Of a stretch of 64,000 bases of DNA, positions 1-61,725 are shown piece after piece. The stretch comes from a virus, in the IMG/VR virus record IMGVR_UViG_3300028837_002886, positions 66,932-130,931 of that record, one strand, 5' to 3'. Both the position numbers and the translations under genes were made by a program. Position 1 is the stretch's first letter. The number at the start of each line of letters is the position of its first letter. The notes below the pieces were generated by a model that did no database searches, was not told the origin of the DNA, and worked only from the letters and a program-made list of their open reading frames with translations.

Positions 1-449
1 TTATCCAGGATTTTATTAATGGACTTTGTGGGCATGTCTTTTATTTCGCCGCCACCTCTTTGCTGCCCGTACTCAATGATCTTATCTATCGTCTCAGCGA
101 CGGTCATACGGGTAAGGTCCAAGAGCTTTTTGACATTGTTGACTTCTAACTTGAATGGCTCCTCCATGTTTAAATATAGATGCGTCAACGGCGGCCTCTT
201 TGTGTCTACCCACTTAAAATGAACTACCAAACGCGCTTTAGGAAAATTAGTCCTAAGTGGACCGCCTCCTTTGCGATAAAAAATAGGGTCCCACATTCCA
301 GACTCGCCTTCTGTTTCGTTGTCTATTGGCCCTATGCGACTTTTCAGCTCTTTGACTAGCGTCTTGACAAAAGCCGTGGGTTGGTTTGACATAACCTTGG
401 CGGCGTTTACATCCTTAAATTTTTCACTTATCGCTTCTGTTATATTCAT
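1..449 (-). CDS. Hypothetical protein, runs off the window edge (MNITEAISENLKDV...)
   Basis: Translated by hand: ATG at 449 overlaps the TGA of the upstream gene (ATGA); frame open to position 1; absent from the ORF track. Confidence 0.7.
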   Translation of the reverse strand, partial: MNITEAISEKFKDVNAAKVMSNQPTAFVKTLVKELKSRIGPIDNETEGESGMWDPIFYRKGGGPLRTNFPKARLVVHFKWVDTKRPPLTHLYLNMEEPFKLEVNNVKKLLDLTRMTVAETIDKIIEYGQQRGGGEIKDMPTKSINKILD

Positions 450-1090
450 TCTTCAAAACTCGAGTTTATTATTTGAGGTTTAATAGGTTCGCTCCAACTC
501 ATCATTTCTTCGTCATACTCCACGTTGTTGTTCCAGGCGTCTTGTAGTGCTTCTTCCATGGTATCATCACTTACATACTTTCCTAACTCTTGTTCAATCC
601 TGGAGGCAATGCGCGACAGTTCATACGCATAGCTCCAATTCATATTCTTATCTTTTCGGAAAGCATTAACAACTTCTTCACCATACTCTGTTTTAAGATT
701 TTCCCAATACTCATCAGCCGCAAAGCCTATTTCGTCATTCACGTATTCATACTTGGTATCGTCAGACCAATCATTTTCCTTGGCTTCTTTCTCGAGCTCT
801 TCCATGTCAATCCAGTCGCCGTCTTCTATCTCTTTCATATCATTGAGTATTTTTGTAACTTTTTGTTGAGCTTCCCAAACAGTGTCTACAATGGCACCAA
901 CAGATCGAGTCGCGGCCGGTTTGTTTACCGTTTCATAAAAGATATAGTTCACGAAAGGACTGACATCTTCCACGATATTATAGATATCATCCATGAAACT
1001 ATCGACCGCGCCATCGACAACGCTCACCATCCAGCTCGGCATTTTATTGGGCCATTTTATTATGGCATCAATTAGATTTGTGGCGGTCAT
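446..1090 (-). CDS. Acidic hypothetical protein
   Basis: 214-aa ORF in a tightly coupled minus-strand run; ends KPQIINSSFEE (motif B-like). Confidence 0.7.
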   Translation of the reverse strand: MTATNLIDAIIKWPNKMPSWMVSVVDGAVDSFMDDIYNIVEDVSPFVNYIFYETVNKPAATRSVGAIVDTVWEAQQKVTKILNDMKEIEDGDWIDMEELEKEAKENDWSDDTKYEYVNDEIGFAADEYWENLKTEYGEEVVNAFRKDKNMNWSYAYELSRIASRIEQELGKYVSDDTMEEALQDAWNNNVEYDEEMMSWSEPIKPQIINSSFEE

Positions 1091-1430
1091 ATATGCTTTG
1101 TTCCCAGTCAGACTTCATGTCAGCTTTCCATTCCATGGCTTCCTCGTAATCGTTTACTTCTATTATTCTTATATTATGTTTATTCATCTTCTTGCGCAAC
1201 TTTTCTACTTCTCCCCGTTCAGCTGCAACAATCAAAGCATCGCTGCGCAGTAAAGGGCCATAGTCGCTGACCAAAACGATCTGTCGGTCGTTGTGCCTCT
1301 CGATGAACTTTCTGATGGCATCATTGGAGCTGCTAATAGATAACTTGGGTAGATCTTCCATGTGATAAAGCATACGATACCCCTCCCGTGTAGGTCGTAG
1401 TGACTGTCTGTAGGCTTCCATCAAAGTCAT
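1068..1430 (-). CDS. Hypothetical protein
   Basis: 120-aa ORF overlapping both neighbours. Confidence 0.65.
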   Translation of the reverse strand: MTLMEAYRQSLRPTREGYRMLYHMEDLPKLSISSSNDAIRKFIERHNDRQIVLVSDYGPLLRSDALIVAAERGEVEKLRKKMNKHNIRIIEVNDYEEAMEWKADMKSDWEQSIYDRHKSN

Positions 1431-2089
1431 TTGCCACTCCCTGTTAAATACTTTATCAACTCCATTTTAGGATTATTGCTTATATCTATCTTTAGGTAAT
1501 CTTGAAAAACCTCCTGACATGATTCGCCAAAATCATACATTTGGTCAAAATTACTAACATGTCTGTTTATTTGTTTTTGATACCAGCTTATATCATTCCA
1601 TGTTTTTTCTATGTCTTCTATGTGTAAATCGCCATGTTCTATGTCAAGCTTGACGCTTTCCCAAAGACCTAGCTCGTCTACATCCATCTTGCTCGCGATC
1701 TCTTCTAAAAACTCATCGTAACTTTCCTGAAGGTCATTGACATCAACATCTTCGGGTTTCAGCGCTTCGCCCTCTTCCCTGCTGGCTTGTACTATAGAAT
1801 TGACAAGACCCTTGCGAAAGTCGTCGGCATCTCGTACTAAATCTTTAAACCGACGCATGGCCTCTTTCATGGCTTCTTTTTCCTTGCCCAAAGGCAGACC
1901 CACCATTTCGTTTAGTAGTAGCGCGGTGAGAGTGTGAGAGCCCGTATCTTCATATATTCGTTCGGCTATATCATTCTGATATGCCATACTGGCGTCGACG
2001 ACGGCTTCCCATATATCGTTACGCTCTTCAACGGGCAGCAGTTTTTCGTCAGTGGTTACTCTTATATAAAAAGCTTTTATGTTTATCAT
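1427..2089 (-). CDS. Acidic hypothetical protein
   Basis: 220 aa; C-terminus DISNNPKMELIKYL resembles that of 5103..5735 (DITKNPKLEFIKYTF). Confidence 0.7.
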   Translation of the reverse strand: MINIKAFYIRVTTDEKLLPVEERNDIWEAVVDASMAYQNDIAERIYEDTGSHTLTALLLNEMVGLPLGKEKEAMKEAMRRFKDLVRDADDFRKGLVNSIVQASREEGEALKPEDVDVNDLQESYDEFLEEIASKMDVDELGLWESVKLDIEHGDLHIEDIEKTWNDISWYQKQINRHVSNFDQMYDFGESCQEVFQDYLKIDISNNPKMELIKYLTGSGK

Positions 2090-2637
2090 TGTTCCAACAC
2101 GTATTTTATTAATTCGCTTAATGATTTTCTCTTATCAATTTTTACATTTTTAAAGTTTTTCTGGGGACTTGTACACTGTTCATCTACCTTGCTATCAATA
2201 TCTTTTAAAAATTCATCGAATCGTTCCTGAAAACACTCGACATTAAGATCTTCAAGCTTTAGTTCTTTGTTCTCTTTCTCTACCGTCGCGTCGACAGTTA
2301 TAGTCTGGTCTTGTATTTCCTCATTAGCCTCTTGAACCAGCGATGCTGAAATCTTGATTGACTCTGCTATTTCAACAGATCCTTTCCAAGGAGTAAAATA
2401 ATTACCGTCAACAATAACCTCTAATAAAGCCATGTCATATATTTTAAACGAGTCTCCAAACTCTATGAGCGGAGGAACAACAACTTTGGCGGAATCGCCT
2501 TCAACCATTGCCGTAATCGTCGTGCTCAAGCTTTCGGAAGTCGGTAACACCAATTTTACAGTTGGAGTAGAGGCGCTGCCAACAATATTTAGCTTAAAGT
2601 TTAACTTCGTGGATTTATCTTTAAATATTTTAATCAT
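2086..2637 (-). CDS. Hypothetical protein, possibly virion-associated
   Basis: 183 aa; beta-rich N-half; lies downstream of the LamG gene. Confidence 0.6.
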   Translation of the reverse strand: MIKIFKDKSTKLNFKLNIVGSASTPTVKLVLPTSESLSTTITAMVEGDSAKVVVPPLIEFGDSFKIYDMALLEVIVDGNYFTPWKGSVEIAESIKISASLVQEANEEIQDQTITVDATVEKENKELKLEDLNVECFQERFDEFLKDIDSKVDEQCTSPQKNFKNVKIDKRKSLSELIKYVLEQ

Positions 2638-2651
2638 TATTTATTTTGTCG

Positions 2652-5102: not shown

Positions 5103-5735
5103 TCATTGTTCAAATGTATATTTTATAAATTCAAGCTTTGGGTTTTTTGTTATGTCAAAATCTCCCCAATTCTCAAGTTCCTCATCGATATATTTTTGCA
5201 GCCAATCTGCGTATTTACTGTCTATTTCAAAAATAGCCTCTTCTACTTTTTTCTCCAAGTAAGGTAAATTTTTCTTAGTCTGTATTATCTTTTTCCTGGC
5301 AAGCTCAGACGTCCCAATCATATCTGCGAAACTTGGGTCCATGTCTAGTTTGTCTGTTATTTTTCTGGCATACACTTTATAACTGGATGGCTTCATGCTC
5401 GGGAGAGTACGTTGCTTTACTGGATACTCCTTTTCGTATTTGGCTAACGCATAGACGAGTTTTTTGTAATTATCAAAAAGATCCGTATCAATGTATAAAT
5501 AATTATCCTCGCGCGTGGGTTCATATAACAGATAGCCTGACAGGATGACAGCGTTTGTTATTTTATTCATTGTAGCTAGCGCGTCTTGCCAGGCCTCCGC
5601 CTCGGCTTCCAGTTCTACTTCTGCCATTATTTCGTGATAAGTATACACAAAATTTTTGATATACTTGTTGCTAAGCGCGCGGTGTTTCGCAAAGTACATA
5701 AAATCATCAAAATTCATTTCATCGTCGTCGTACAT
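5103..5735 (-). CDS. Hypothetical protein
   Basis: 210 aa; ends KLEFIKYTFEQ. Confidence 0.7.
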   Translation of the reverse strand: MYDDDEMNFDDFMYFAKHRALSNKYIKNFVYTYHEIMAEVELEAEAEAWQDALATMNKITNAVILSGYLLYEPTREDNYLYIDTDLFDNYKKLVYALAKYEKEYPVKQRTLPSMKPSSYKVYARKITDKLDMDPSFADMIGTSELARKKIIQTKKNLPYLEKKVEEAIFEIDSKYADWLQKYIDEELENWGDFDITKNPKLEFIKYTFEQ

Positions 5736-5737
5736 AA

Positions 5738-6728
5738 TTAGGACTCGTGAATTTTTTTCAAAGCTTCGACATGATGAAATTGTCTTAATTTCGCGCCGAA
5801 TGCTTCGAAATATTTTGCTATATCTTTATACGAACCTTTCTTTACTGCGATTACTATTGCTGATGGAAAAAACATCCTACGGTGTTTTTCATATACTATA
5901 TATAGACGATAGCCCTCATACTGTTTAAACCATGACCTAGCCCGCTCTATACTGCTATCGTGATCTAAACCTATTTTTACAGCTAGATCGTCGTGGCTCG
6001 TGCGCTTAGACATCGACCCAGTTATCCAAAATAAAATACTTAACAAGTCTTCATCGGGATAAAGATCGAACATATCATGTATCGTCTGTCTCTTTATTGG
6101 TTTCATTCGTAAGTTGTCTCCCTGCCTTCCCTGCTCATTGTGTAAAAATCTTCCAATGCCCCGGTCAATAGGGACCACGATAAGTAGCCCAGTAGCCATT
6201 CCTCGTTTCGTCCAGCAAACTCCGCGCGTATTTGATATACCGTTCTCTTGATGCGACCAGTGCTCATTACAGAACGCCGAGATCCTTTGACTATTTCTTT
6301 GAACCCCAAGTTATGCATGTAGGCTATCTTTTTTAAAACATGCTCTAATTCGCGCACAACTGGGCCCTGTACAGGTAGTTGATCTTCAAACATTATCATT
6401 AAATGTAATTTCTTTGGCAATCTTATTTTCATAATTTTTTCATCGGCGGCCAGGCGCCTTCGTGGAATTGGGCTATTATAAAAGTTTCCTTCGCTTGATT
6501 CTTCCTCATCCACTGTTCCCAATCCCATTTTAATATTTCATAGATTTCTTCACCTAACGCGTTAGGCTCCAAGTCACGCGGATCGGTTGCGCCCGTTCCA
6601 TATGTTAGATTGCTGATAGCATTATCTTCAGCGGTCTCGATATCATCAATAAACCAAAACCCTCCGAATTTCTCTTTTAGTTCTTCTTTGTGTTGTAATA
6701 TCAAATCTACAAATTTGTCTATTGTCAT
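5738..6728 (-). CDS. Three overlapping hypothetical ORFs (5738..6199, 6103..6528, 6429..6728); starts uncertain
   Basis: Co-oriented ORFs filling the operon; true starts probably internal (MKPIKRQ, MKIRLPK). Confidence 0.5.
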
Positions 6729-6994
6729 GTCTTATCTTCATGTCGACTTTCTATCAAGCGTTTAATCATGTTGATTTTTGCTTCATATAATGTTTCGAAC
6801 AAATCATCCGGGTGTGCATATATTTTCTTTTCAATATCTAGATGTCCATCGCTCAGCCCTTTGATGATATTTACTGAGATCAACGGTTTTGATTTAGAAA
6901 TAAAATCAACTTCAGCCTCAGCTACGTGCCAACTCAGCTTGTTATTTAGTGGCAAACTGTGGTATAGTAAATATACTTTTTCGCCCTTTTTCAT
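6725..6994 (-). CDS. Small SH3-like hypothetical protein, paralogue of 8397..8660
   Basis: MKKGEKVY...SW...YAHPDDLF...EAKINMIKRLIE aligns with MKKGDVVY...SW...YARPKDLF...EAKINLVRRLIE. Confidence 0.7.
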   Translation of the reverse strand: MKKGEKVYLLYHSLPLNNKLSWHVAEAEVDFISKSKPLISVNIIKGLSDGHLDIEKKIYAHPDDLFETLYEAKINMIKRLIESRHEDKT

Positions 6995-7017: not shown

Positions 7018-8211
7018 TTATCGTAAATATTCAAATTTGGCGGTTAAGCATCCTTTGAATAGGATCATTCCATTCTTTATATAGACCGGCAAATGACTCA
7101 CCTGAGAGTCGTTATAAAAATCTGTTTTATAAATCAAAGGAATGAAATCTGATAAATTCTTACTGAACGATTCGCTTGACTCTCGAGCCAACCCACTCGG
7201 TAGATTATCAATCGCCATAATCATAATCTTTTTGCCATTTGCTCTCTTTGGTTTCCACCAATAAATAGGATCTTTAAATGTGGTTGTTCTATTTACTAAC
7301 TTATTTCCACCATTTATATCACACGTAAAATCTCCAATAATCCTAAGCCTAGAATTCAATCTATTCTGAAACATTAACTTTTCTAGAATTGGTGGTTCCC
7401 ACGGTTTCCAGGATGTTGCATTAATCAAAACTGTGAGGTAAGGTAAAAATCTGCCAAGTCCTCGATCCTTTGTGTGTTCTCTCGTAAACTGAGTTACATA
7501 GATATCCTGCTGTGCTCGAAACCGTTTCTTCGCAGAGATGGCAAATAACTCCTCAGGTTTTATATAACGACAAGATAAACAATTCAGCACTTCTAAGGCG
7601 CCCTTTGCCATACGACCATTCCCCACAATCCCAATTATAAAGGATGTTAAACTCCTTGGAAATGATCCACACACCTGCCGTTGAAGATTATGTTTTAAAA
7701 GCTTAACGTTTTGATATAGCCGCGCGGTAAAGAGATTCACAAAAGGTGTACAAAGATCTTCCTTTAAAAACTGCTTACCTAAAAGTCTTAACACCTCTAC
7801 CATACCCACTATGCCAGCGAATCTGCCAAATGTCGAAAGTTTTTCGCCTGCAGCAGTGGTCATCAATTCATAGTCAAAGAGATTACACCCTGACCGCATT
7901 AACTTTTGTAACATTGCCCGATTACATTCTTGCGCCAAGTGCGTATGTGAAAAGAAAAAGTAAGTTGAATGCTTCTGAATAAACTTTAGAGCAACATCTT
8001 TTATACCAAAGACTACACAATCTTGACTTAAGTGCTTCACCAATCTTGCTCCTACTTGCGCATACTCCTTATCCTTAAACGCTCTTTCTTTTGACTTCTG
8101 TACTTCTACATCAATACCAAAATCGAGCAATAATGATTCTACGTTAGCAGGCATAAGAGGGGATCGGGTCTCGCCGGGATGATTCTCTCGTCTAATACCA
8201 ATCTTGTTCAC
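7018..8211 (-). CDS. Saccharopine dehydrogenase / lysine-ketoglutarate reductase-like protein (AlaDh/PNT fold)
   Basis: IGIRRE..GETRSPLMP, GIKD, FFSH, LFDYELM, FGRFAG, IGDFTCDING, AIDNLPSGLARESS. Confidence 0.85.
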   Translation of the reverse strand: MNKIGIRRENHPGETRSPLMPANVESLLLDFGIDVEVQKSKERAFKDKEYAQVGARLVKHLSQDCVVFGIKDVALKFIQKHSTYFFFSHTHLAQECNRAMLQKLMRSGCNLFDYELMTTAAGEKLSTFGRFAGIVGMVEVLRLLGKQFLKEDLCTPFVNLFTARLYQNVKLLKHNLQRQVCGSFPRSLTSFIIGIVGNGRMAKGALEVLNCLSCRYIKPEELFAISAKKRFRAQQDIYVTQFTREHTKDRGLGRFLPYLTVLINATSWKPWEPPILEKLMFQNRLNSRLRIIGDFTCDINGGNKLVNRTTTFKDPIYWWKPKRANGKKIMIMAIDNLPSGLARESSESFSKNLSDFIPLIYKTDFYNDSQVSHLPVYIKNGMILFKGCLTAKFEYLR

Positions 8212-8220: not shown

Positions 8221-8400
8221 CTATGTTATATTAAATATTTCTTTCTCTTCTACCTCTTCTCCTGCTAGCTCTTCAAGCTTTTTTATAATGGGTCTAACTT
8301 CTTCGTCTTCTACCCACACTAAGCGTTCTACCATTCTCATCCACGGTAATAAATCTTTAGCAAGCTCAGCTATCTCTTTTCCAAACTCTGTCTTGGTCAT
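8221..8400 (-). CDS. Small hypothetical protein (59 aa, MTKTEFGKEIAELAKDLLPW...)
   Basis: Translated by hand; ATGA overlap with the upstream gene. Confidence 0.6.
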   Translation of the reverse strand: MTKTEFGKEIAELAKDLLPWMRMVERLVWVEDEEVRPIIKKLEELAGEEVEEKEIFNIT

Positions 8401-8660
8401 TCTGCTATTCGTTCTTCTATAAGTCGCCTTACTAAATTAATTTTCGCCTCGGCTGCGGTTTTGAACAGATCTTTTGGCCTCGCGTAATGAGACGCGTTTT
8501 TTCTAAATCTGAAAAAATAGGCACCTACTTTTTCTATCATCTTTACGCTGGATACAGTACCCACAATGGAATTAATATTCACCTTCCATATGGCCCAGCT
8601 GGGTTTTTCGTTTACGCCCCATCCTGTGAAAAGAAAGTATACTACATCTCCCTTTTTCAT
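8397..8660 (-). CDS. Small SH3-like hypothetical protein, paralogue of 6725..6994
   Basis: Sequence similarity to 6725..6994. Confidence 0.7.
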   Translation of the reverse strand: MKKGDVVYFLFTGWGVNEKPSWAIWKVNINSIVGTVSSVKMIEKVGAYFFRFRKNASHYARPKDLFKTAAEAKINLVRRLIEERIAE

Positions 8661-9979
8661 ACTTTACCCCAACCCCACATGTTGAGCATATAGGCCTTGA
8701 AAGCTTTACCTAACAGGTCGGCCTTGTTTATATTATGCTTGACCTTTCTGAGCTTATAACCGTTTATCAATAACGCTTTTTTGATATCCTCAGCTTTCAT
8801 ACTCTTGGTGCCTTCGTATCTATTCCACATACCCTCGAGTTTTCTGATGGTGTCATCTATCCTGTCGTTGATTTTTTGTTTATTATATGGTATGCCAAGT
8901 TTCTTAGTACTGCGCGCTCTAAATAGATCATCGGTGCTTTTATATTTATTCATGGTTTTTGGGCCAAACTTGCTTATTTTAGAAATGCCGAAAACATCAT
9001 TGAGCATGAACATGTTGAAACTTTTCATGATAGGATCCAACTCGTCTCTCAACGGTCCCCAAAGTGCTTGATTGAGTTCCCTAAAGTCCCCGGTAATTTT
9101 TAACAGGGTTTCTCTATCAAGACCCTTGCGGTATTTAACAACCAACCCTTCTATTCTTGGATGTTCCGGTGGGACCTCTACTTCTGGCCCAGCCAGCTTG
9201 GAAACCATTTTGGTGAGGATAATAGAACCGACTTTGTCTGCTATTGTGCGCATTAACTCAAACTGTTTTTCTGGATCCTTTTCTGCGCGCAGTTGTTTTA
9301 TTTCACCAATATTTTTCCAGGCTTTCAAAACAGGTTCAAGTGTTTTTCCTATGTCCTCTTTGTCTATTTTGATGGGACCTTTGAACTCCCAAGCACTTGT
9401 TCTTTTACCAACTACCCTATCTACATCTGCCGGGGTGCCTATATAACTGACTACATCGGATATTACACTCATCTGACCGATCACATCTGCAAGGTCGTTT
9501 AGATTGTATTCGGCATCTACCGGCTCAAAATCTTTCTCTGGATCTACATAACCATGAAAGACAACATAGTTTTTTGTCTCGCTGTATGGTACTATGTTCG
9601 GCACAAAGCCAAATATGATTTCACAATTTATGAAATTTCTATCTAGGCCGTATTTCTTTTTATCTTCTTCGGAGAGCTTCCTGAAACCTTTTTTGATTGC
9701 TTTGAAACCGGCCCTAAAAGCATCGGAGCCCGGATGGGTAATTGGGAATTTTTCATCTATGTTGGCAGAGGGTTTGGCTTTCTTGCTTCTAACATACACT
9801 ACGTTATTGTAATTGTCAAAACCAACCATAAGGTTGGCGCCATCTACTTTTTCGTAAGCTTCGGTGCGACCTTTTAGCAGATCGTTTATAAATCCGATAA
9901 ATCTTGAAGGGGACAGAACTTCATATGGGTGGGCCATGTGACCTGCCGCTCCGCCTTCAAACAGTTGAGCGTTATTCAT
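8657..9979 (-). CDS. RNA ligase-like covalent nucleotidyltransferase
   Basis: Motif I EKVDG, III NCEII, IIIa VVFH, IV IEGLVVK, V LLKI; N-terminal GGAAGHMAHP. Confidence 0.65.
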   Translation of the reverse strand: MNNAQLFEGGAAGHMAHPYEVLSPSRFIGFINDLLKGRTEAYEKVDGANLMVGFDNYNNVVYVRSKKAKPSANIDEKFPITHPGSDAFRAGFKAIKKGFRKLSEEDKKKYGLDRNFINCEIIFGFVPNIVPYSETKNYVVFHGYVDPEKDFEPVDAEYNLNDLADVIGQMSVISDVVSYIGTPADVDRVVGKRTSAWEFKGPIKIDKEDIGKTLEPVLKAWKNIGEIKQLRAEKDPEKQFELMRTIADKVGSIILTKMVSKLAGPEVEVPPEHPRIEGLVVKYRKGLDRETLLKITGDFRELNQALWGPLRDELDPIMKSFNMFMLNDVFGISKISKFGPKTMNKYKSTDDLFRARSTKKLGIPYNKQKINDRIDDTIRKLEGMWNRYEGTKSMKAEDIKKALLINGYKLRKVKHNINKADLLGKAFKAYMLNMWGWGKV

Positions 9980-10021: not shown

Positions 10022-10768
10022 TTATGCGGGCTTGACGCGCTTTTTAGCTTCAGTCTTGGAGATAGGCTTAATTTCGTATGTTCCGTCTTTGTTTACTTTT
10101 TCAATAGCGCCGTATTTCTCGTCATCGCCGATGCGAACGACGCGGCCCGGGACCATTAGATCTTTCTTGCTTGGGGGTTTAGGTTGACCTTGTTGCCTCT
10201 TCTTTTGTTCTTTTTCCAAATGCTTATACAAACCCTCAGTGGTCCATAGCTTTGGATCTTTTACTTTCTTGGCATATCCTTTATCTATTCTCAGACCGGC
10301 ATACTTGCCTGTAGGCATTTTAAGAAGAAGACCAGCAACACTCTTGAGTTCGCCAAGAATGTTTTCATTTATGATCATATCGCCGGCGACGTTATACAAA
10401 TCGTTTGAGAGTTTTCGTCTAGCCGCTCTATCTAAATGAAGTCTTGCAATATGATAAAACTCATGAGCGATGATAAACATTAGTTGTTCGGGTGGGAACG
10501 TATCGATAAAAGCTTCGTTGTAGTAAAAGTTTATTTTGCCGTCCTGTATATTAACGCCCGCGGTTTGTACGTCAGGGTGGTTTTTGATAAATCTACACTT
10601 TAAAAGAAAAGTGGCGAATAAAGCATCCCTCGGAATGAGATGCTGTATCATCGCGCGCAATTTTTCTGGAGGTCTTGTTTCTTCTTGTTCTAACAGCAGG
10701 TTGCCGATCTCGACAAATGGATCTTGTACCCGCTCATTCATTCGTTCAAGTAAACTCTTAAGACTCAC
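10022..10768 (-). CDS. HExxH metallopeptidase (N-terminal half of a DUF2201-type peptidase-vWA protein)
   Basis: TAGVN...YYNEAFI...FIIAHEFYHIARLH...YNVAGDMIIN. Confidence 0.85.
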   Translation of the reverse strand: MSLKSLLERMNERVQDPFVEIGNLLLEQEETRPPEKLRAMIQHLIPRDALFATFLLKCRFIKNHPDVQTAGVNIQDGKINFYYNEAFIDTFPPEQLMFIIAHEFYHIARLHLDRAARRKLSNDLYNVAGDMIINENILGELKSVAGLLLKMPTGKYAGLRIDKGYAKKVKDPKLWTTEGLYKHLEKEQKKRQQGQPKPPSKKDLMVPGRVVRIGDDEKYGAIEKVNKDGTYEIKPISKTEAKKRVKPA

Positions 10769-13070: not shown

Positions 13071-13080
13071 TGTATTCCTC

Positions 13081-49876: not shown

Positions 49877-50529
49877 TTATTCTCCCTCGGACTTGGTTTC
49901 TTCTATATATGCCTCATCGGGTTTCTTTTTACGATAGGCGTTCCGGAAGTTGCTCACTGCCGACATGATTCTCTTATCCTCTGAAGGTTTTTTCAGAACA
50001 GGCTCGGCTTTGGCTCTTTCCTCTGTTTTCTTTTTTAAAAACGGAAGTTTCATTTTTTCCTCTCTTGAATATTCTGTTGATTTTTTATCAATAAACCGTT
50101 TTACTGTAATAAACGGAAGTCCATCGAATAACGCTTCAATAGCGTTTAATTTTATTCTATTTATTGTCTTCATGGACCTCAAGTACTCCGTCTCTCATCA
50201 ATCTCTTCATTTCGTGGGTAAACCCATCGACGTCGATTGTTTCACCGGATTTGATTACGTGATTCTTACCCTTAAACCGCAGAGTAAGTGTGTTTTTGGT
50301 GTTGTTAATGAGCGTTATTTTTTCATACTCAAGCAGCGTTTTAGCCACTTTGGTTAGGATCTTCCTTTTGGCCATTCCTTAGAATCTCCTTGGCTAATAA
50401 CATTTTCTTCTGGCTCTCTGTTAGCGGGTTGCCGCCCATACTAATAAATACCGGTTTACCATCTGGTCCATGGAACCAACTAAAAGGAACTTCAATCTGT
50501 CTAGCTGTATTCTCCACAATCTTCACCAC
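49877..50529 (-). CDS. Three small hypothetical proteins (49877..50182, 50157..50375, 50341..50529)
   Basis: ORF track. Confidence 0.55.
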
Positions 50530-50549
50530 TCTCTCCTAGAATGTCATTA

Positions 50550-50882
50550 TTATATATGCTTCTTCCACCCCTTTATCAGTTGATGAAATGGTGCCCATGT
50601 TGCCTCGGGTAATATGTCTTTTATCGCCCTCGCTCCTACCGGATTTATCGAATGAACCACTATTTGAGCGTGAATGTCTTTCTCCGCTATAACCTTGGCC
50701 AGTTCACACCCTGTTACTGGTGTGCCCAAATCGTGATCTATAAAAATGATATCGTATTCGTGCTCATCCAACGAAGCAATAGCCTTCTTTGCGCTGTAGT
50801 ATATGTGCAGCTCATGACCAGGTAGATACTCTTTGAATGCTTCTTGTCTCTGAGGTGAATCTTCTAATATGAGCACTCTCAT
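50550..50882 (-). CDS. Cyclic-phosphate-processing receiver domain protein
   Basis: LILEDSPQR, IDHDLG, VHSINPVG. Confidence 0.75.
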   Translation of the reverse strand: MRVLILEDSPQRQEAFKEYLPGHELHIYYSAKKAIASLDEHEYDIIFIDHDLGTPVTGCELAKVIAEKDIHAQIVVHSINPVGARAIKDILPEATWAPFHQLIKGWKKHI

Positions 50883-50886
50883 GGTT

Positions 50887-51744
50887 TCACTCGTGTAACA
50901 GTATTTTAGCTTTGTCTTTCTTTCTTTTTGCTCTATGTAGCTCTATTTCGCGCTTGATTTTCTCACGCCAATTCGGTATAAACTCATCACACAACGCGTC
51001 GACTATTTCCTGTCTTTTGTTTCTGAGCAAATCCAGACAATCACGACAGGCCACGGTACTCTGTGACGAAAAATCGCGATTTTCGTGGTGTTGCTGGAAA
51101 GACTCAAAGACGCTTTGGATTATGTCATCCACGAAGTTTTGTTTATCTTTTTTTCCCAAAAAGCTTTCTGTGGCGGCTTCCAATTGGTCTATATAATCAG
51201 GACTTAATCTGTCTCCGCAAAAATCACAGTAGTATCTAATCATTCCCGGGCCTCAGCAATAATTTCGCATAATATTTTTTATACTTCTCTTTAGTGACTT
51301 TCCGGTAACCGCGGCCATTGAGCGTCTTTTTTAGATATATATCATGCACATCTCTCGCGAAAGTGCTATGTTTATCAACGCCTTGAACAAACCACCATGC
51401 GGCTTCCTGGGCCGAATCTGAACATTCCCAGTAATCTGTTATGTTAACAAGTGTGTCTTTGTGGATCCAAATAGAATCCAGTTGTATGTTATTCACCGCC
51501 GCTACCAATCCAACACCAGCTTGATTTTAGCCAGTTCTTTTTTCTCCGGTTTTTTACATTTTACTAGTATCCGTTTCATGCTCCAGGGAGAAATACCGTT
51601 TATCGTGCGAGATCGATAGGGATACCTTGAGTTGGTTAGATTATTTCTGCACGCTACATATACATTCCAAAGATCTAAATCGTCGGATTCTATTTTCAAG
51701 ACCGCCCCTCCGTCAACGAATATGTCTCCATCGATCAGTTTCAT
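50887..51744 (-). CDS. Three small proteins ending in motif A (50887..51243, 51236..51508, 51502..51744)
   Basis: KAKILLHE, YAKLLLRPG, LAKIKLVL. Confidence 0.65.
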
Positions 51745-53849
51745 ATCTCAGGCACCATTATTTTGTTTATAATGAGATCACCATCCCGCATCTTGCCCAT
51801 TTTGAAAACCAAAACTTTATTTTTGATCAGGTTACGAGCACTTTCGTTAAATTGATGCGCAAACAACGGATAACGCCTTACTCCGTTCTCATCCCTAATC
51901 GATACAAAAGCCATCATGTTGCCGTTTCTATCGCGCTTTCTTGTTACATCAGTTATAATGCCGATCAAAGCCCTACTATCAAGCATGCTTTTCAGCTGTG
52001 CTATCTCATCGGCCTTTTCTTCATACAGTATCATTGATATATCCAATGTCAATAAGTCCTGTAATAACTCCAGCTTTTCCTGCTTGTTCCAATCTGTTCC
52101 TTCCCTGGTCTTGATGAACTGTTCAAATGGAACTTTTGCGCCCTTCTTGCGCCACTCATCATAGTTAGTATACAGCGTCCTGCGATTGCCGTAAAGCTTA
52201 TCAAAAGCGCCCGCTTGTATCAAGCTGTCAAGAACCCTCTTGTTTACTTTCGTGCCGGTTTTGTGCTCCTTCAATTTGGTGAAAAAGTCAGTAATACTCT
52301 CATGAGGCGCGTGCTCGGAAATCCATTTAGCGGGAACCACGCCGCAGTTCTTGACATGGCTCAATCCATAAATGACGGTCTTGTCGTCTATAATGCTAAA
52401 GTGCGTTTTACTTTTGTTTACGTCCGGATATAATACTTCTATACCAAGCTGCTTACATTCAGCAGTCAGCCTATCCACAGGGGTTTTGTCAGAGTTCAAC
52501 GAGGCGCACATAAACTCAACAGGATAATGGACCTTGAGCCACGCGGTGTAATACGCAATGGTCGCATACGATAAAGAGTGGCTGCGGTTGAACTGGTAAC
52601 CGGTCTGTTTGATAAGATATTCCCACAGCAGCCTCGTCTCTTTCTGATTTCTGTTTTTCTTTTGACAGCCCTCGAAGAACTCCTGCTCCCACTTCTTTTT
52701 ACCCTTGGTGTCATTCTTGAACTTGGAGTGCCATTTTTCCATATAGCGCCTGAGTGAGTCCGCGCGGCCCAAACTAATTCCGGATGCCATGTGCGCAATG
52801 TTGATGGTTTGTTCCTGGAACACCAATAGACCCAAAGTAGGTTTTAATACCTCTTCTAGAACAGGATGCGCATACTTGATCTCCTCTTCGCCGTGTCTGC
52901 GTTTGATGTAGTTGTTTATAATAGGAATAGAACCTGGCCTGAATAAAGCATTCATGATTACAATATCCTCAAATATTTTAGGTTTCAGCTTTTGTAAATA
53001 ACCTTTCATCGATGGACTTTCAAACTGAAACACAGAGGTGGTCAGGCCTTTGCCAAATAATTTATAAACATCTGGAACCTCGAAGTTTATATTATGTATG
53101 TCTATTTCTTTTCCATGCCTCTCCTTTATAAAGTCCAGCGTATCATGAATAATTTTGAGAGTAGACAGTCCGAGTATGTCAAGCTTCAACAGTTTCATTT
53201 CTGCTATTGACTCACCATCAAACTCAGTCAAAAGCATGTCATCATCCCTGTTGTACTGACATGGAATATATTTTTGGACAGCCTTGTCCGCTATGATGAT
53301 GGCGGCTGCGTGTTTGCCATAGTTACGCATCTGTCCTAACAGTTTCTCAGCAAACTTGAAGATTTCAGGATACTGGTGATAAGCGCTGCTTTCGTTCCAG
53401 TTAGTTTCGTCTATGTTCTTGGATATAGCAATAGCTTTCTGGGCGGGTATACCATGTATTCTCGCGGAATCCTGAAAAGCTGACTTGATGGAATAAGTAA
53501 TGACGTTACACACCTGAGCGACGTTCGTCTGACCAAATCTTCGCTTGATGTAATCAATGACATCACCTCTGCGGGCATCTTCAAAATCAATGTCTATATC
53601 AGGAGCTTTGCCAGATATCGTCAATTTTTCAGGTTCGTCATTTATGGGATCATGATGAATGTATCCCAACAAATACCAAATCAGGATATTGGGATGCGGG
53701 TCGGTTCCGTTATCAACATCTTTCAAAAGGTTGGTGTGAGTTATGATCTCATATTTCTTGAACTCTTTTAGTTCATAATCCAATCGCTGGCGATGCTTCT
53801 CGTCGTTTATGCCTTTTTCTTTCAACAGGCGGTATAGTTTTTCTTTCAT
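51741..53849 (-). CDS. dnaE: DNA polymerase III alpha (DnaE), C-terminal part: catalytic palm, fingers, HhH, OB
   Basis: PDIDIDF, GKHAAAII, KLDILGLSTL, VFQFES, FQEQ, YQFNRSH, MAFVSIRD. Confidence 0.92.
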   Translation of the reverse strand: MKEKLYRLLKEKGINDEKHRQRLDYELKEFKKYEIITHTNLLKDVDNGTDPHPNILIWYLLGYIHHDPINDEPEKLTISGKAPDIDIDFEDARRGDVIDYIKRRFGQTNVAQVCNVITYSIKSAFQDSARIHGIPAQKAIAISKNIDETNWNESSAYHQYPEIFKFAEKLLGQMRNYGKHAAAIIIADKAVQKYIPCQYNRDDDMLLTEFDGESIAEMKLLKLDILGLSTLKIIHDTLDFIKERHGKEIDIHNINFEVPDVYKLFGKGLTTSVFQFESPSMKGYLQKLKPKIFEDIVIMNALFRPGSIPIINNYIKRRHGEEEIKYAHPVLEEVLKPTLGLLVFQEQTINIAHMASGISLGRADSLRRYMEKWHSKFKNDTKGKKKWEQEFFEGCQKKNRNQKETRLLWEYLIKQTGYQFNRSHSLSYATIAYYTAWLKVHYPVEFMCASLNSDKTPVDRLTAECKQLGIEVLYPDVNKSKTHFSIIDDKTVIYGLSHVKNCGVVPAKWISEHAPHESITDFFTKLKEHKTGTKVNKRVLDSLIQAGAFDKLYGNRRTLYTNYDEWRKKGAKVPFEQFIKTREGTDWNKQEKLELLQDLLTLDISMILYEEKADEIAQLKSMLDSRALIGIITDVTRKRDRNGNMMAFVSIRDENGVRRYPLFAHQFNESARNLIKNKVLVFKMGKMRDGDLIINKIMVPEI

Positions 53850-53864: not shown

Positions 53865-55871
53865 TTATGATTTAGTAACGTCATGTAATACCTTTGCGAG
53901 AGTCTCGAGCGTAAACGGTTTCTGTATAACATCCTTGAAACCATAATCTTTGTAGTTGCTCATAGCATTGGATGTAGAATAGCCGCTTGAAACAATAGCC
54001 TTGACCTGCTTGTCTATTTCCAGGAGCCTCTTTATGGTCTCAATACCATCCATACCCCCAGGCATAGTAAGATCTATAACAACGGCATCAAAGTGCTTAT
54101 CTATCATGGAACCCTTGTAGGTCTCTAATGCCGCCTCACCGCACGACACCACGGTAACAGTGTAGCCCAAGTCTTCTATTAGATCCTTGGCTATCTCTCT
54201 AACCGGCGCCTGATCATCTACAAAGAGCACGTTGCCTCGGCCATTTAGGTGTGCATCCAAATCTTCTTCTTTTATTTCTTCTAAAGTCGTGGGTAAATAC
54301 AAAAAGAATGTGGAGCCTTTGCCTAACTCGGAATCAACCCACACGCAGCCTTCGTGATTTTTGATAACAGAATAGGCGGTGGCCAATCCAAGCCCGCTTC
54401 CTGCGTGTTTAGTTGTGAAATAGGGATCAAATATTTTGTTGAGGTGTTCCTTTGGTATGCCTATGCCTTTGTCAGCAATCGTAACTTCCAAATATGCACC
54501 CGGCTTTAGATGAGCATCGCAAGGTACGCCCATGGGCGCCTTCACCTCTCTCGCCGCTAATTTTATGACGCCGCCTGTGGGCATGGATTGCATAGCGTTT
54601 ATCAATATGTTTTGTATAACCTGAGATATTTGACCAGGATCAATGTGAGCGTTAGGTATGTCTTCTGGTATGTTGTATTCTATTTTAGAGTTACAACCAC
54701 TAGTGGTAAAAGTGGTTGTCTCCATTATAATTTCCTTTATGGATACTGTTCGACGAACTGGCAGACCTCCACTGGAGAATGTCAACAACTGCTGCGTCAG
54801 ACTTTTAGCGCGCTTGCAGGCCTTTAGTGCCTGTACAAGTCTGTTTATTACTTCATTTTCCAGTTTTAGATCTGGCTCGTCGAGAACCTGGTCAGATTTT
54901 ACATGTCTGCGGCTATGCATCAAAGCCAGTTCGACATTGCCACTGATAGCCGTCAGTATGTTATTGAAATCATGGGCAATACCACCGGCCATTACGCCAA
55001 CTGCTTCCAGTTTTTGGGATTTAGATAACTCCAACTCGGTCTTTCTCTGGAGTGTAATATCTCTAAACACCGCGACAGCACCGACAATATCGCCTTCTTT
55101 ATTTTTGATTGGCGCTGCTGTATTATCGATAAGCCGGCTTTTGCCTCGTTTAGATATAAGAACTACATCTTTTTTAAGTTCAATAATCTTACCTGTCTCT
55201 AGAGCCTTTTGTAACGGGTTAGGGGCCATTGCGTTGGTCTTTTCATCAAACAAATGAATGATGGCATCAAAAGGCTTTCCTATCACTTCCTTCTGTTTCC
55301 AACCAAGTATGTGTTCCGCCATGCGGTTTAGTATAGTTATTTCGCCTTTGGCACCTACAGCGACAACACCATCGCTGATGCTCTTCAATGCAATATTTAA
55401 TCGTTCGGTTTCTTCGGCCAAGGCTCGCTGCGCCTTTACCCTTTCGGTAATGTTGCGATGCTGCACTATAGCATTGACAACTTTGTTCTTAATTATAATA
55501 GGCGTGATAGTTACATCTAACGCGAGGGCGCTGTGCATCGTAAGGTGTGCGTGTTTTATCTCTGCAGGAGTATAATCTAACATAAAATGCACAGGTTGTT
55601 TTTCATAGAAAACCTTATCTATGAGAGGAATCAAATTCTCTTTGTGAAACTCTTCATCCTTGAATAGATTATATACTCCAACTACTTGTTCATCCGTGAT
55701 ATCAAACAGATCGCGGTTGACCTGGTTCTGCATAATCATTGTGCCCTTTTCGTCCGACAACCACATACTGTTTGGGCTGTTTTGTATGATTTTGCCGCAG
55801 AACTTATTTATATCTTCTTTTGTGATTTTGTTATTAGTATTTAGTAACAGGTCGTTTTTTCTTTTTCTCAT
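53865..55871 (-). CDS. Hybrid sensor histidine kinase (PAS-PAS-HisKA-HATPase-REC)
   Basis: AGGIAHDFNNIL, NILINA, DKGIGI, FTTK..GSGLGLA; REC FVDD...IDLTMP...KPF. Confidence 0.95.
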   Translation of the reverse strand: MRKRKNDLLLNTNNKITKEDINKFCGKIIQNSPNSMWLSDEKGTMIMQNQVNRDLFDITDEQVVGVYNLFKDEEFHKENLIPLIDKVFYEKQPVHFMLDYTPAEIKHAHLTMHSALALDVTITPIIIKNKVVNAIVQHRNITERVKAQRALAEETERLNIALKSISDGVVAVGAKGEITILNRMAEHILGWKQKEVIGKPFDAIIHLFDEKTNAMAPNPLQKALETGKIIELKKDVVLISKRGKSRLIDNTAAPIKNKEGDIVGAVAVFRDITLQRKTELELSKSQKLEAVGVMAGGIAHDFNNILTAISGNVELALMHSRRHVKSDQVLDEPDLKLENEVINRLVQALKACKRAKSLTQQLLTFSSGGLPVRRTVSIKEIIMETTTFTTSGCNSKIEYNIPEDIPNAHIDPGQISQVIQNILINAMQSMPTGGVIKLAAREVKAPMGVPCDAHLKPGAYLEVTIADKGIGIPKEHLNKIFDPYFTTKHAGSGLGLATAYSVIKNHEGCVWVDSELGKGSTFFLYLPTTLEEIKEEDLDAHLNGRGNVLFVDDQAPVREIAKDLIEDLGYTVTVVSCGEAALETYKGSMIDKHFDAVVIDLTMPGGMDGIETIKRLLEIDKQVKAIVSSGYSTSNAMSNYKDYGFKDVIQKPFTLETLAKVLHDVTKS

Positions 55872-58724: not shown

Positions 58725-58730
58725 AGTGTT

Positions 58731-59951
58731 TTATCCTAAGAATTTTATTGTTTTACCGCCTAATCTTTCTGGATTTAAGAAGCGCTCAAACTGTAACTTG
58801 TGTACAATAGGATCAACATCTGTTATGTTCAGGGCATAGGCTATAAGAGATCCTGCTGCGCTTCCCCTGCCAGGTCCTACATAAATATTTTCAGACTTGG
58901 CCCAGCCAACTATATCTGCCACTACTAAGAAATAAGAAGAAAATCCTGCGCTATAGATGATCTTGAGTTCATAAGCCAATCTCATCATGTAGGTGTCATT
59001 TCGCAAGCATCTCCTATCCAGACCCTCTACGCACTTTTTGCGGAGTATCTCATCAAGGTCGGCGCCCTCGAACTCTGGAATAGGAGGCACGATATAATCA
59101 TGCTGCTTAATATCAAACACCTCTATTTTATCGGCTATCTTTACGGTCGTATCACACCACCCCTCAATGTCCTTTTTATCGTAGCCGGTGTTTATGCCTT
59201 CTCTGATGATTTCTTCTCTTGAGTGCAAATATATATTGTCTTCGTCGAATTGAAGCCCTTTGTCGTCGCCTACTTTACCGCCAGTATTGACCAACAGCAG
59301 TTTGGCGTGATCGTCTTTCTGATCTGCCGTTATATAGTGGGCATCAGCGGTGATAATGGCTGGAACCTTCAACATTTTCCAGAACTTGTATAGTTTTATT
59401 TCTATGGCTTTTAATCTCTCGGTCTGATGTGGTTGAAACTCTATATAAAAGTCATCGCCAAATACATCAAGATACCAATCTAGGTTCCTCTTGGCCGCTT
59501 TTATATCATTGTTTATCAACATGCTTGTTACATCGTTGGCAAGACAGGCGGTTGTGGCTATTATATTTTTACTGTACGCCTTCAAGGTCTCTCTATCTAT
59601 ACGCGGTCTTTTATAAAAACCATAACGATGACCAATATATTGCATCTGCATTATGTTACGATAACCTTCGATGTTTTTCGCCAACAGTACAACATGAAAA
59701 CGTTTTTCTCCCTTTGGTTTGACTTTCAGATCATCAACCATATAGGCCTCAACACCTATCAACGGTTTGATCTTGTATTTCTCGGCAAGGTGCCAGAACT
59801 CATAAACTCCTGACATTGTTCCATGATCGGTTATAGCTAAGGCAGGCTGCCTTAGTTCTTCTGCTACATACTTAAGGCGTGCTTTTTTCGTCCCTAGCCC
59901 ATCGAGTGCACTAGAATCGGTGTGTACGTGAAGATTTACGAAGTTATCCAT
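58731..59951 (-). CDS. dnaE: DNA polymerase III alpha (DnaE), N-terminal part: PHP domain plus start of palm
   Basis: HVHTDSSALDG, AITDHG, GVEAY, TADAHY, GPGRGSAAGSL, FERFLNPER, then stop. Confidence 0.92.
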   Translation of the reverse strand: MDNFVNLHVHTDSSALDGLGTKKARLKYVAEELRQPALAITDHGTMSGVYEFWHLAEKYKIKPLIGVEAYMVDDLKVKPKGEKRFHVVLLAKNIEGYRNIMQMQYIGHRYGFYKRPRIDRETLKAYSKNIIATTACLANDVTSMLINNDIKAAKRNLDWYLDVFGDDFYIEFQPHQTERLKAIEIKLYKFWKMLKVPAIITADAHYITADQKDDHAKLLLVNTGGKVGDDKGLQFDEDNIYLHSREEIIREGINTGYDKKDIEGWCDTTVKIADKIEVFDIKQHDYIVPPIPEFEGADLDEILRKKCVEGLDRRCLRNDTYMMRLAYELKIIYSAGFSSYFLVVADIVGWAKSENIYVGPGRGSAAGSLIAYALNITDVDPIVHKLQFERFLNPERLGGKTIKFLG

Positions 59952-59960
59952 TTAGTATAT

Positions 59961-60368
59961 CTATGTCTTGAGTAAGCTTTTGACACGACATCTTTCGCAC
60001 ATATTGCGCAACCAGCTATGCTTATAATTTTGTACTGCTACTTTTTTAGTCGAACCGCAAATCTCACACGTTTTTGCGCATTGTTTTTGAGCCTCGCTGA
60101 TCAACTCGATTACCTTTACGTACACATCACCGCACTCATGCACATAAACTCTGAGCTCGGCAAACTTTTCTTTTACCTGCACAATCTCAAAATCTTTCGG
60201 AGGACGAAGGCTATCTATTTTAAGAATTAGGTCCAAAATAATATCAAACCAGCCGTCGCCGCAAGCAAAACCCTCTCTGTGACCCATGCGGCTAACCGAT
60301 TGATCTTCTTTGTGTTCGAAAAAATGTGGAAACCGATCGAATATTTTTTTCTCTAATTTGTCAGTCAC
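59961..60368 (-). CDS. Phage hypothetical protein with zinc-binding C-terminus
   Basis: CGDGWFDII, QVKEKFAELRVY, CEICG...CERC. Confidence 0.7.
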   Translation of the reverse strand: MTDKLEKKIFDRFPHFFEHKEDQSVSRMGHREGFACGDGWFDIILDLILKIDSLRPPKDFEIVQVKEKFAELRVYVHECGDVYVKVIELISEAQKQCAKTCEICGSTKKVAVQNYKHSWLRNMCERCRVKSLLKT

Positions 60369-60470
60369 TTTATCTGACCCCTGGATTTTATTAAGATAAG
60401 AATACCAGACCTAACAGTCCCGGTCATAATTATATATGGCCCAAGCGCACATCAAAACAGGAGGAGTTTA

Positions 60471-61088
60471 ATGAGAAGAATACTGTTTTCACTTTTAGCT
60501 TTGTTGTTTTTATTCGGTCTCGGTTCCGGATTGTTCGCTCAGAAAGATGCCTATAGATGGTACGTCCGAACTATTGAGCTTAAAGTTACATTCTGGGAAG
60601 ATGACGAGCAAAAGACGGAATATCGTGAAGAATATCTCTTATATTTTGGCAACGAAAAGACGTTAGAAGTAGAAGCTCAACTCGCAAGATCTAGAATGGG
60701 TTTTGGAGCCATGGTGTTCCATCCTATACCAGAAGTGACAGAAAGCATGAGCTTCCAGGCCCCCGAAAGATGGTACGTGCAACCATACGACCATAGTAAG
60801 CATGATTCTCCTAAATTATATCCATTGTTTGAGGATCGCGTATGGAACAACATGCCGCAGAACATCAAGCTCATCATAATGGCCCTGGATTACAAAGATG
60901 ACGATCTTATTCTTATTCATATGAGAGGCAACACTGGCAGCATTAGTATTTGTTACCACCCTAAGTTTGACGAAGACAAGGAGTTTTATGGGGCAAAATT
61001 GGAGCAGCTTTTGGATTATCTAAACAACCTGGAAGATCCTGAGAAAGAAATACCTAATCCAATTTTACCAATTAAGAACACAATATAA
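60471..61088 (+). CDS. Secreted protein, paralogue of 23388..24029
   Basis: Signal peptide ending GLFA; SD AGGAGG; shared motifs. Confidence 0.8.
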   Translation: MRRILFSLLALLFLFGLGSGLFAQKDAYRWYVRTIELKVTFWEDDEQKTEYREEYLLYFGNEKTLEVEAQLARSRMGFGAMVFHPIPEVTESMSFQAPERWYVQPYDHSKHDSPKLYPLFEDRVWNNMPQNIKLIIMALDYKDDDLILIHMRGNTGSISICYHPKFDEDKEFYGAKLEQLLDYLNNLEDPEKEIPNPILPIKNTI

Positions 61089-61101
61089 AGATAATTTTGT
61101 T

Positions 61102-61725
61102 ATGACTAGAGAAGAGTTTCTGTCCATCGAACATCCATCTATAGAAGAGTACCGCTATTCAGACGTTGTGGTGTACTTTTTGTGGAATAAACCAAGCAAA
61201 AGTAGTATCACCTTGAAAGGCTCAGTATGGATCTACACGGATGGCAACAAAAGCATTGCACTAAAGAACGAAGTATTAAAGGAGCTTAAAGATCTTGAAG
61301 CCGCGGCTTTTTCTATAAGAAAAAAGAATTTAATATTGTTAAACCCCGGTAAAAAATATGTTATAGGTCGACTTTTCGGTGAAAAGGTGCGACAGGAATA
61401 AAATATGAAATCAGCTGACACCATAAGCGATGTCGCAGTCCCGTTTCTTGTTAAAAGCAAAAGCGGTCAAGGCTCTACAAAAAGCTGGGAATACATATAC
61501 GTAACAGAGGTCTACGATCGATTAGCCAAGAAAGAAAGTAAAGTCGGGGCTGTTGTGAGACTAATGCGGTTCGGTAGTAACGTTGGCGTATTAATAGAAA
61601 AGGGTAAAGAAGCTCAATACATGTGGTCACATATATTTTCACCGAGGGCGCAACAGGTTGAGATGAAACGAGGTAAAAAAGATCTACTTGTTGACCTTTT
61701 CACTTTTCCTGACAGAATGATTTAA
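61102..61725 (+). CDS. Two small proteins ending in motif B (61102..61401, 61405..61725)
   Basis: KKYVIGRLFGE, KKDLLVDLFTF; AAAGATAA at 61087. Confidence 0.65.

Follow-up and report, generated by a model that had tools for sequence, protein, structure and literature searches.

This study concerns a short peptide motif that recurs close to the C-termini of proteins encoded by a viral contig, IMG/VR record IMGVR_UViG_3300028837_002886. The stretch of DNA analysed, hereafter the window, is 64,000 nt long and represents the second half (bases 66932-130931) of this 130,931-base contig, the completeness of which is estimated at about 70%. In its strict form the motif, named motif B, reads K-x-x-h-h-x-x-h-F, where h is any of ILVMFWYAC. 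Codon-usage scoring, with nine open reading frames (ORFs) added by hand and two removed, gave 205 genes on the whole contig, 135 of which encode proteins of no more than 150 residues. The C-termini of the called proteins are independent of the choice of start codon.

PHROG and Pfam scans revealed that the window is a replication and nucleotide-metabolism region. The replication genes comprise a DnaE-like polymerase in two separate genes, a DnaB-type helicase, a primase and a gp32-like single-stranded DNA-binding protein (SSB), while a dUTPase and a dCMP deaminase represent nucleotide metabolism. Further genes in the window encode a nucleotidyltransferase, a eukaryotic-type topoisomerase IB, a lysozyme-domain protein, a hybrid histidine kinase, a tubulin/FtsZ-like GTPase and a sigma-70 region-2 protein. 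Tail and baseplate genes lie in the first half of the contig, together with a peptide importer and further replication genes; no capsid, scaffold or portal gene was found on the approximately 70%-complete contig. A megablast search revealed no close relative of the window among deposited phages, and the best tblastn match of a DnaE-like polymerase piece was Moorella phage MTATph1, with 32% identity. Scans of IMG/VR with four single proteins (the protein encoded at 22397, the DnaE piece, a member of the tandem family described below and the helicase) gave either no relative or a chance match, L006, which is without motif carriers.

Motif B at the C-termini of phage proteins

An earlier note on this DNA had listed 22 peptides as instances of motif B at the ends of about 20 putative late proteins. 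All 22 are in frame and lie within about 30 residues of a stop codon, the ORF boundaries being as given there, and they occur on both strands (19 minus, 3 plus). The proposed consensus held strictly for 10 of them, while the other 12 miss at least one position (e.g., KINMIKRLI, KMELIKYLT and TILNMIFD). One strict case, KADLLGKAF in the protein encoded at 8657-9979, was absent from that list.

The enrichment at C-termini on which the earlier proposal depended was clearly present (19-fold, Fisher p 8.8e-14). Of the 29 strict matches on the whole contig, 19 sit 3-13 residues from the C-terminus and 10 are interior; the former fall in the last 17 possible positions of the 205 proteins (3485 positions) and the latter in 35649 interior positions. 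The enrichment was 25-fold among proteins of up to 150 amino acids (aa) (18 C-terminal vs 3 interior matches, p 8.9e-11), and 10-fold when one match per sequence family was counted (10 vs 10, p 2.5e-6). As the motif had been defined on the window, the first half of the contig provides an independent test, and here 8 of 11 strict matches were C-terminal. A matrix trained on the 11 window sites scored 16 of 72 first-half C-termini above the interior 95th percentile, against 3.6 expected (p 4e-7), and the reverse test, trained on eight first-half sites that come mostly from one family, gave 16 of 133 against 6.7 expected (p 0.001). An iterated matrix called 29 to 35 carriers among the 205 proteins against 4.1 expected, a figure inflated by the presence of training sites among those scored. 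When the same pipeline was applied to Moorella phage MTATph1 (150 kb) and T4 (first 100 kb), no strict C-terminal match was found among 170 and 159 proteins, respectively, with seven and three matches in the interior. The enrichment, together with the absence from these two control phages, indicates that motif B is real, bound to the C-terminus and a property of this phage; among the three phages tested, it is specific to this one. That the motif is a product of chance, or a generic property of protein ends, is scarcely credible. The pattern is simple and was defined post hoc, and more than half of the listed cases are loose; against this stand the p values overall (9e-14) and after collapsing families (2.5e-6), the validation on the first half of the contig and the empty C-termini of two other large phages (0/170 and 0/159).

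The composition of the motif is constrained most at its two ends. If the remaining positions are held to the pattern, 19 of 29 C-terminal matches have Lys at position 1 and none has Arg, compared with 10 of 124 with Lys in the interior; Phe at position 9 is found in 19 of 55 C-terminal and 10 of 191 interior matches. Positions 4 and 5 are mainly Ile, Leu or Val, and position 12 is often hydrophobic too. Asn, Asp or Gly often precedes the Lys, and Gly or Asn often follows the Phe, which, judged from sequence, would fit the start and the end of a short helix. Codon usage at the 19 strict sites is mixed, with AAA and AAG used 11 and 8 times for the Lys, TTT and TTC used 10 and 9 times for the Phe, and many codons at the other positions. 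Since synonymous codons vary freely, selection acts on the peptide. A DNA-level motif, such as a promoter translated in frame, was ruled out on the same ground. Overlap with the downstream gene was also considered as a constraint and rejected: the overlaps do not exceed 25 nt and, for all but one of the 19 strict cases, lie within the residues following the motif. The one outlier is the first-half gene G 21550-21846, with a called overlap of 25 nt and a tail of seven residues. The tails are purine-rich and probably carry the ribosome-binding site of the next gene.

Proteins carrying motif B and their genomic setting

The carriers account for about one-tenth of the proteins and are small, fast-evolving, accessory and without assigned function. 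The strict carriers range from 76 to 440 aa. None of the 22 listed carriers gave a Pfam match at E 0.01 or a PHROG match at E 1e-5, and no Pfam or PHROG match was obtained for the 8657-9979 protein. In what follows, coordinates are those of the window unless otherwise indicated, and the tail is the number of residues between the end of the motif and the C-terminus.

Family F3 comprises an 82-aa orphan (22397-22645, minus strand; KGNLIDFLF at 22421-22447, tail 7), its 86-aa paralogue (22642-22902, minus; KTEVIVFLF at 22669-22695, tail 8) and a distant 82-aa member (22904-23152, minus; KHLVVKTMF at 22922-22948, tail 5), which joins the 22397 group in alignment A1. Family F5 is represented by two orphans of 131 aa (34817-35212, minus; KIGMLTSVF at 34856-34882, tail 12) and 106 aa (35516-35836, minus; KSQIVKTLF at 35537-35563, tail 6), and family F4 by an orphan of 117 aa (34270-34623, minus; KTGIVAGVF at 34306-34332, tail 11) and its 115-aa paralogue (35169-35516, minus), in which the motif is the shortened variant KTIVKIF (peptide 35193-35219). 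The F5 and F4 genes form a two-gene unit, F5 then F4, which is tandemly duplicated at 34270-35836 (minus), with both genes ending in motif B and a 70-aa gene inserted in the second copy. The remaining strict carriers are orphans of 89 aa (21446-21715, minus; KKDAMRAMF at 21476-21502, tail 9), 118 aa (43035-43391, minus, just upstream of the tubulin/FtsZ-like gene; KVDILNHIF at 43065-43091, tail 9), 99 aa (61102-61401, plus; KKYVIGRLF at 61351-61377, tail 7) and 106 aa (61405-61725, plus; KKDLLVDLF at 61675-61701, tail 7), the last of which has a first-half paralogue, and the 440-aa protein of no known family (8657-9979, minus; KADLLGKAF at 8699-8725, tail 13). No Pfam or PHROG match was found for the 21446 protein.

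Two orphans bear near-motifs with a single Thr, namely KRFTLAAIF (Thr at position 4, tail 4; peptide 36476-36505) in a 99-aa protein at 36464-36763 (minus) and KKMITGWIF (Thr at position 5, tail 8; peptide 24311-24337) in a 111-aa protein at 24029-24364 (plus). Between the 21446 gene and family F3 lie a 91-aa orphan (21712-21987, minus) with the variant KKNTVKRLI, which has a final Ile (tail 6; peptide 21733-21759), and a 138-aa orphan (21984-22400, minus) with the weak variant (Y)TILNMIF, which lacks the Lys (peptide 22002-22025); a 59-aa ORF at 23149-23328 (minus) ends in the variant KRYMIFWLL (tail 14; peptide 23194-23220). Family F2 consists of an 89-aa orphan (6725-6994, minus; KINMIKRLI, tail 8; peptide 6749-6778) and its 87-aa paralogue (8397-8660, minus; KINLVRRLI, tail 6; peptide 8415-8444). 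The variants in family F1 are KLEFIKYTF (Thr at position 8, tail 2; peptide 5106-5138) in a 210-aa protein at 5103-5735 (minus), the loose KMELIKYLT (peptide 1442-1468) in a 220-aa protein at 1427-2089 (minus) and the loose (S)ELIKYVL, again without Lys (peptide 2089-2115), in a 183-aa protein at 2086-2637 (minus). Finally, a 214-aa protein at 446-1090 (minus) has the loose variant KPQIINSSF (Ser at position 8, tail 2; peptide 449-481). The window also contains two plus-strand cassettes, at 23388-24364 and 60471-61401, each of which starts with a protein of about 210 aa; these leading proteins (23388-24029 and 60471-61088) are paralogues, and a motif B carrier directly follows each.

The description of the carriers as having unrelated bodies needs qualification, as 11 of the 22 listed proteins fall into five paralogue groups by phmmer; what stands is that the carriers represent at least 10 families without detectable similarity. 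Among 153 hhalign comparisons between 18 groups, only the 61405 protein and a first-half gene were linked (71% probability), the next best value being 12.6%; because phmmer and hhalign link only a few carriers, the number of families is put at 10 or more. Outside the window, nine consecutive small genes inside the baseplate module form a very diverged tandem family in which nothing is invariant except an N-terminal Trp (W7) and the Lys of the motif. The 61405 family shows a 15-residue indel, an insertion in the linker of the first-half paralogue, immediately ahead of a G-K-x-D-L-L...F that is otherwise invariant. Protein searches found two to four metagenome homologues per family, all on short contigs, and a HMMER profile search with A1 against 1.84 billion proteins gave six matches at E 0.001, two of them at E 1e-10 or below. 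In orthologues with 57-80% identity, the x positions change while the Lys and the hydrophobic positions are kept in six of six; at position 9, four of the six have Phe and two have Ile, which is also the residue found in the counterpart of these two on this contig. Two metagenome orthologues of the 22397 protein keep K..hh..hF.

The carriers share no obvious gene module. The supposition that they are late proteins is not supported, as the window carriers lie mostly among replication and nucleotide-metabolism genes and others in the tail/baseplate module outside the window. This distribution bears on the function that the earlier note had put forward, in which the motif serves encapsidation or virion attachment by binding the capsid interior, a scaffold or some other part of the virion. 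Short terminal targeting peptides send unrelated proteins into a capsid-like shell in the case of the T4 internal proteins and of encapsulin cargo; the T4 capsid targeting signal lies at the N-terminus and is cleaved off, and the encapsulin peptides have a consensus rich in Gly, Ser and Leu. The nine carriers of one family inside the baseplate module and others beside tail genes outside the window are in line with a virion role, but most window carriers are found in the replication and nucleotide-metabolism region and the T4 signal differs in position and processing. The gene surroundings give no support to encapsidation, and nothing observed points to a scaffold; this function has a very small probability.

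A putative docking helix and alternative readings

We tentatively favour the reading that motif B is a portable docking helix, carried on a variable linker and read by a common partner. What points to a docking tag is the combination of a helix in which Lys and Phe are fixed, a variable-length linker and bodies that share nothing else detectable. The tag would be an amphipathic helix of about 9-12 residues, lying 3-13 residues from the C-terminus and preceded by a loop or linker; its hydrophobic face (positions 4, 5, 8, 9 and 12) would plug into a groove of the common partner, of phage or host origin, with the Lys making a specific contact, and in this way many different small domains might be gathered at one place or machine. 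We infer both that a partner is bound and that it is a single one. The earlier note's term, docking helix, thus survives as the favoured reading, since the predicted helix lies behind a variable linker and outside the recognised fold and is found on dissimilar bodies. If about one-tenth of the small orphans share a terminal tag, then they share one partner or destination. Small orphan genes number hundreds per large phage and are hard to study singly; identification of a single reader would place a whole block of such dark-matter proteins in one pathway, and a transplantable tag would also result. No description of a phage-wide C-terminal tag of this kind was found by full-text searches of open-access papers and preprints.

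Structure models were obtained with AlphaFold2 for two families. In the F3 (22397) model, residues 1-50 form a barrel with a predicted local distance difference test score (pLDDT) of 70-81, while residues 52-82, which contain a helix at 67-79, have a pLDDT below 50. Structural matches of this model, to Tudor/SH3-like barrels, cover residues 1-60 only and leave the motif helix outside. The best was 7c9n_B (Z 6.4, root-mean-square deviation [rmsd] 2.9 A, 54 aligned residues), followed here by the C-terminal Tudor domain of UvrD (Z 6.0, rmsd 1.9 A, 49 aligned); both Z values are below 8 and may reflect a common arrangement only. The tandem-family model consists of four strands and two helices, gave no clear match (best Z 5.0) and differs from the F3 model in arrangement. 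Foldseek searches of the PDB and BFVD with both models gave nothing at E 0.001, the E values of the F3 barrel being above 0.1. Protein-atlas features of the 22397 protein pointed weakly to Tudor/Agenet barrels (0.77-0.86, to be taken as leads only), and those of the 43035 protein gave no usable lead. A complex prediction for two copies of the 22397 protein (A1) scored 0.14 against a mark of 0.42, which speaks neither for nor against association.

Several points weigh against a docking tag. The models were built from five (F3) and nine (tandem family) sequences and reached a mean pLDDT of 62 and 66, so that shallow alignments, and not flexibility, may account for the low pLDDT of the helix. The spacing i, i+3, i+4, i+7, i+8 is that of any amphipathic helix, 12 of the 22 peptides originally listed are loose, and the motif was defined after the data had been looked at, a concern that the independent first half of the contig answers. 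No partner was found for motif B, and neither a gp45-type nor a beta-type sliding clamp (PF02916, PF02768) was detected on the approximately 70%-complete contig; a host clamp could serve in place of a phage-encoded one. Many carriers also look beta-rich, with a start of the K-x-G-D-x-V type, and they could share one small fold that lies beyond sequence detection.

This last point leads to a serious rival to the docking tag, namely that the carriers belong to one old, hugely expanded and diverged superfamily of small beta-rich domains, capped by a helix as in chromodomain- or Sso7d-like barrels, in which the C-terminal helix packs on its own body and is not a separable tag. Such an origin is suggested by the five paralogue groups in the window and the nine-member array in the tail module, by the length of most carriers (76-131 aa), by the K-x-G-D-x-V-like strands with which several unrelated-looking carriers start, by the beta-rich N-terminal part and terminal helix of both models, and by the weak atlas pointer of the 22397 protein to Tudor/Agenet barrels (0.77-0.86, again leads only). 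We nevertheless consider it unlikely, given that hhalign sees no similarity beyond the motif for 152 of 153 group pairs, that the two models have no common arrangement and that a 15-residue indel separates body from motif in the 61405 family. Moreover, the helix has a pLDDT below 50 beside a confident barrel and is left out of the F3 fold matches, and the motif is also present on proteins of 183-440 aa.

Comparison with known C-terminal helices brings in a further alternative, in which the motif is a membrane-targeting amphipathic helix of the MinD type that lies flat on the cytoplasmic membrane and recruits small proteins to it. Escherichia coli MinD ends in EEEKKGFLKRLFGG, with an exact K..hh..hF match (KKGFLKRLF) two residues from its end, and PMC8155659 describes this stretch as a transplantable C-terminal membrane-targeting helix. 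The mean hydrophobic moment is 0.30 for the 19 motifs and 0.37 for MinD, and the residues directly upstream of the motif are often basic. The tags themselves, by contrast, are far less basic, the mean net charge of the nine residues being +1.2 compared with +4 in MinD; 6 of the 19 are neutral or negative, and Asp and Glu are common at positions 3, 6 and 7. Position 1 is never Arg, a restriction that a membrane surface would not impose, and MinD is a single ATPase whereas the motif, with its fixed Lys and Phe, is found on many proteins. One matching helix in one known protein is also weak evidence for so simple a pattern. Because of the low basicity, the neutral or acidic third and the exclusion of Arg, we rate membrane targeting lower, as quite improbable.

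The hydrophobic stripe at positions 4, 5, 8, 9 and 12 would suit helix-helix packing, and in the duplicated F5-F4 unit at 34270-35836 both members are tagged. Both features could be explained if the tags bundled together, or bound each other's barrels, to give homo- or hetero-oligomers. We regard self- or cross-association as very improbable: an invariant Lys heading the hydrophobic stripe would be unusual for a coiled coil, while nothing speaks directly against it.

For the favoured docking tag, the nearest documented case, by analogy, is found in T4. As described in PMC2988020, gp43, gp55 and gp33 carry an interchangeable hydrophobic C-terminal motif behind a divergent linker, which binds the sliding clamp. 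Motif B resembles it in being a short hydrophobic C-terminal motif with a Phe, on unrelated phage proteins and behind a linker of variable length, and the end of one carrier, KGNLIDFLFD, is similar to those of gp43 (KASLDFLFG) and gp55 (SLDFLYEAND). The two nevertheless differ in several respects. T4 has three carriers and this phage 19-35; the Lys-to-Phe spacing in T4 is one residue shorter, and the tails here are 3-13 residues long; among the 19 strict motifs, only KGNLIDFLF comes close to the T4 consensus S-L-D-F-L-[FY] at the C-terminus. Whereas the T4 carriers include a polymerase and a sigma factor, those described here are orphans, and none of the DnaE-like pieces, helicase, primase, SSB and sigma-like protein carries the strict motif at its C-terminus. 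The difference in spacing and the lack of the motif on replication proteins place motif B outside the T4 clamp-motif class; the approximately 70%-complete contig also yielded no clamp gene.

Other classes of docking peptide also differ from motif B. The bacterial beta-clamp-binding consensus is QL[SD]LF and the PIP box is Q-x-x-[LIM]-x-x-[FY]-[FY]. In motif B the residue four before the Phe is Ile, Leu, Val or Met in 19 of 19 cases and never Gln, which departs from the former; with respect to the PIP box, the first residue is Lys, an aromatic residue occupies position 8 in just 4 of 19 cases (three Tyr, one Phe) and the spacing is one residue longer. In the poxvirus ankyrin/PRANC proteins, a common C-terminal element connects numerous fast-evolving bodies to one machine. 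The PRANC element, however, belongs to a eukaryotic virus and is a folded, F-box-like domain tens of residues long, while the element described here would be a 9-12-residue helix in a phage.

Motif A and other features of the contig

A second C-terminal motif was observed on this contig. Sixteen small proteins end in h-A-K-x-h-[LIVMF], mostly after K/R-x-x, at 2-12 residues (mostly 2-6) from the C-terminus, an enrichment of 12-fold (p 5e-10). This motif A is very basic, and many of its carriers adjoin replication genes; those in the window, all on the minus strand, lie at 17668-18803, 20452-20844, 26327-27303, 28851-29270, 45197-45430, 45900-46589, 50341-51744 and 62163-62799. Motif A (K-x-x-h-A-K-x-h-L) and motif B have the skeleton K1-h4-h5-h8-h9 in common, KINMIKRLI (6725) and KKNTVKRLI (21712) are intermediate between them, and a loose pattern covering both is found in 47 of the 205 proteins. 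The two may be variants of a single device. A wider proposal, which we consider doubtful, is that A and B together mark about 35-47 of the 205 proteins as a proteome-wide address system, with one or two readers sorting effector-like proteins. Candidate destinations would be a replication compartment or filament system, a tubulin/FtsZ-like GTPase being encoded by the phage; the virion; or an AAA+ machine, two MoxR-like AAA_5 genes being present. If this is true, the phage would have a type of sorting signal for which no phage precedent has been described.

The tubulin/FtsZ-family GTPase (41988-42986, minus; PF00091, 1.7e-10) resembles the PhuZ/TubZ-like phage tubulins, and ahead of its gene lie a conserved promoter-like word and the motif B gene 43035-43391. 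This word, CATATATAAT, occurs six times, always on the minus strand and 12-90 nt upstream of a gene start (window 43022, 50557, 60437 and 21181; first half G000 42074 and 45573); four of the six sites are intergenic, and the other two fall inside the upstream gene, at its 3' end. The word is likely to represent a phage-specific extended -10 promoter class of the replication region.

The MoxR-like AAA_5 ATPase forms a cassette with HNH-endonuclease-like genes, present in two copies at window 10022-14187 (minus) and G000 59274-61672; the ATPase is 769 aa long in the window copy and 364 aa in the other, and no vWA domain that might mark a partner was found by Pfam among the scanned proteins. The two pieces of the DnaE-like polymerase (58731-59951 and 51741-53849, both minus) lie about 5 kb apart and cover positions 43-440 and 441-1053 of the phrog_405 profile, respectively. 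Several Cys-rich mini-proteins are encoded between them, as are the dCMP deaminase and a hybrid sensor kinase (53865-55871, minus). The latter combines PAS, HisKA, HATPase_c and receiver domains in a single protein of 668 aa, and a separate small PAS protein is encoded in the first half of the contig (G000 37464-38027). The topoisomerase IB (18791-20455, minus) is full-length and of the eukaryotic type (Topoisom_I_N 1e-60, Topoisom_I 2e-51, Topo_C_assoc 1e-13), which is unusual for a tailed phage. Finally, a set of auxiliary metabolic-looking genes on the minus strand of the window (7018-8211, 39442-40323, 40732-41181 and 43941-44729) comprises an alanine dehydrogenase/PNT-like protein, an AICARFT/IMPCHase-like piece, an Hsp20 and a radical-SAM-like protein.

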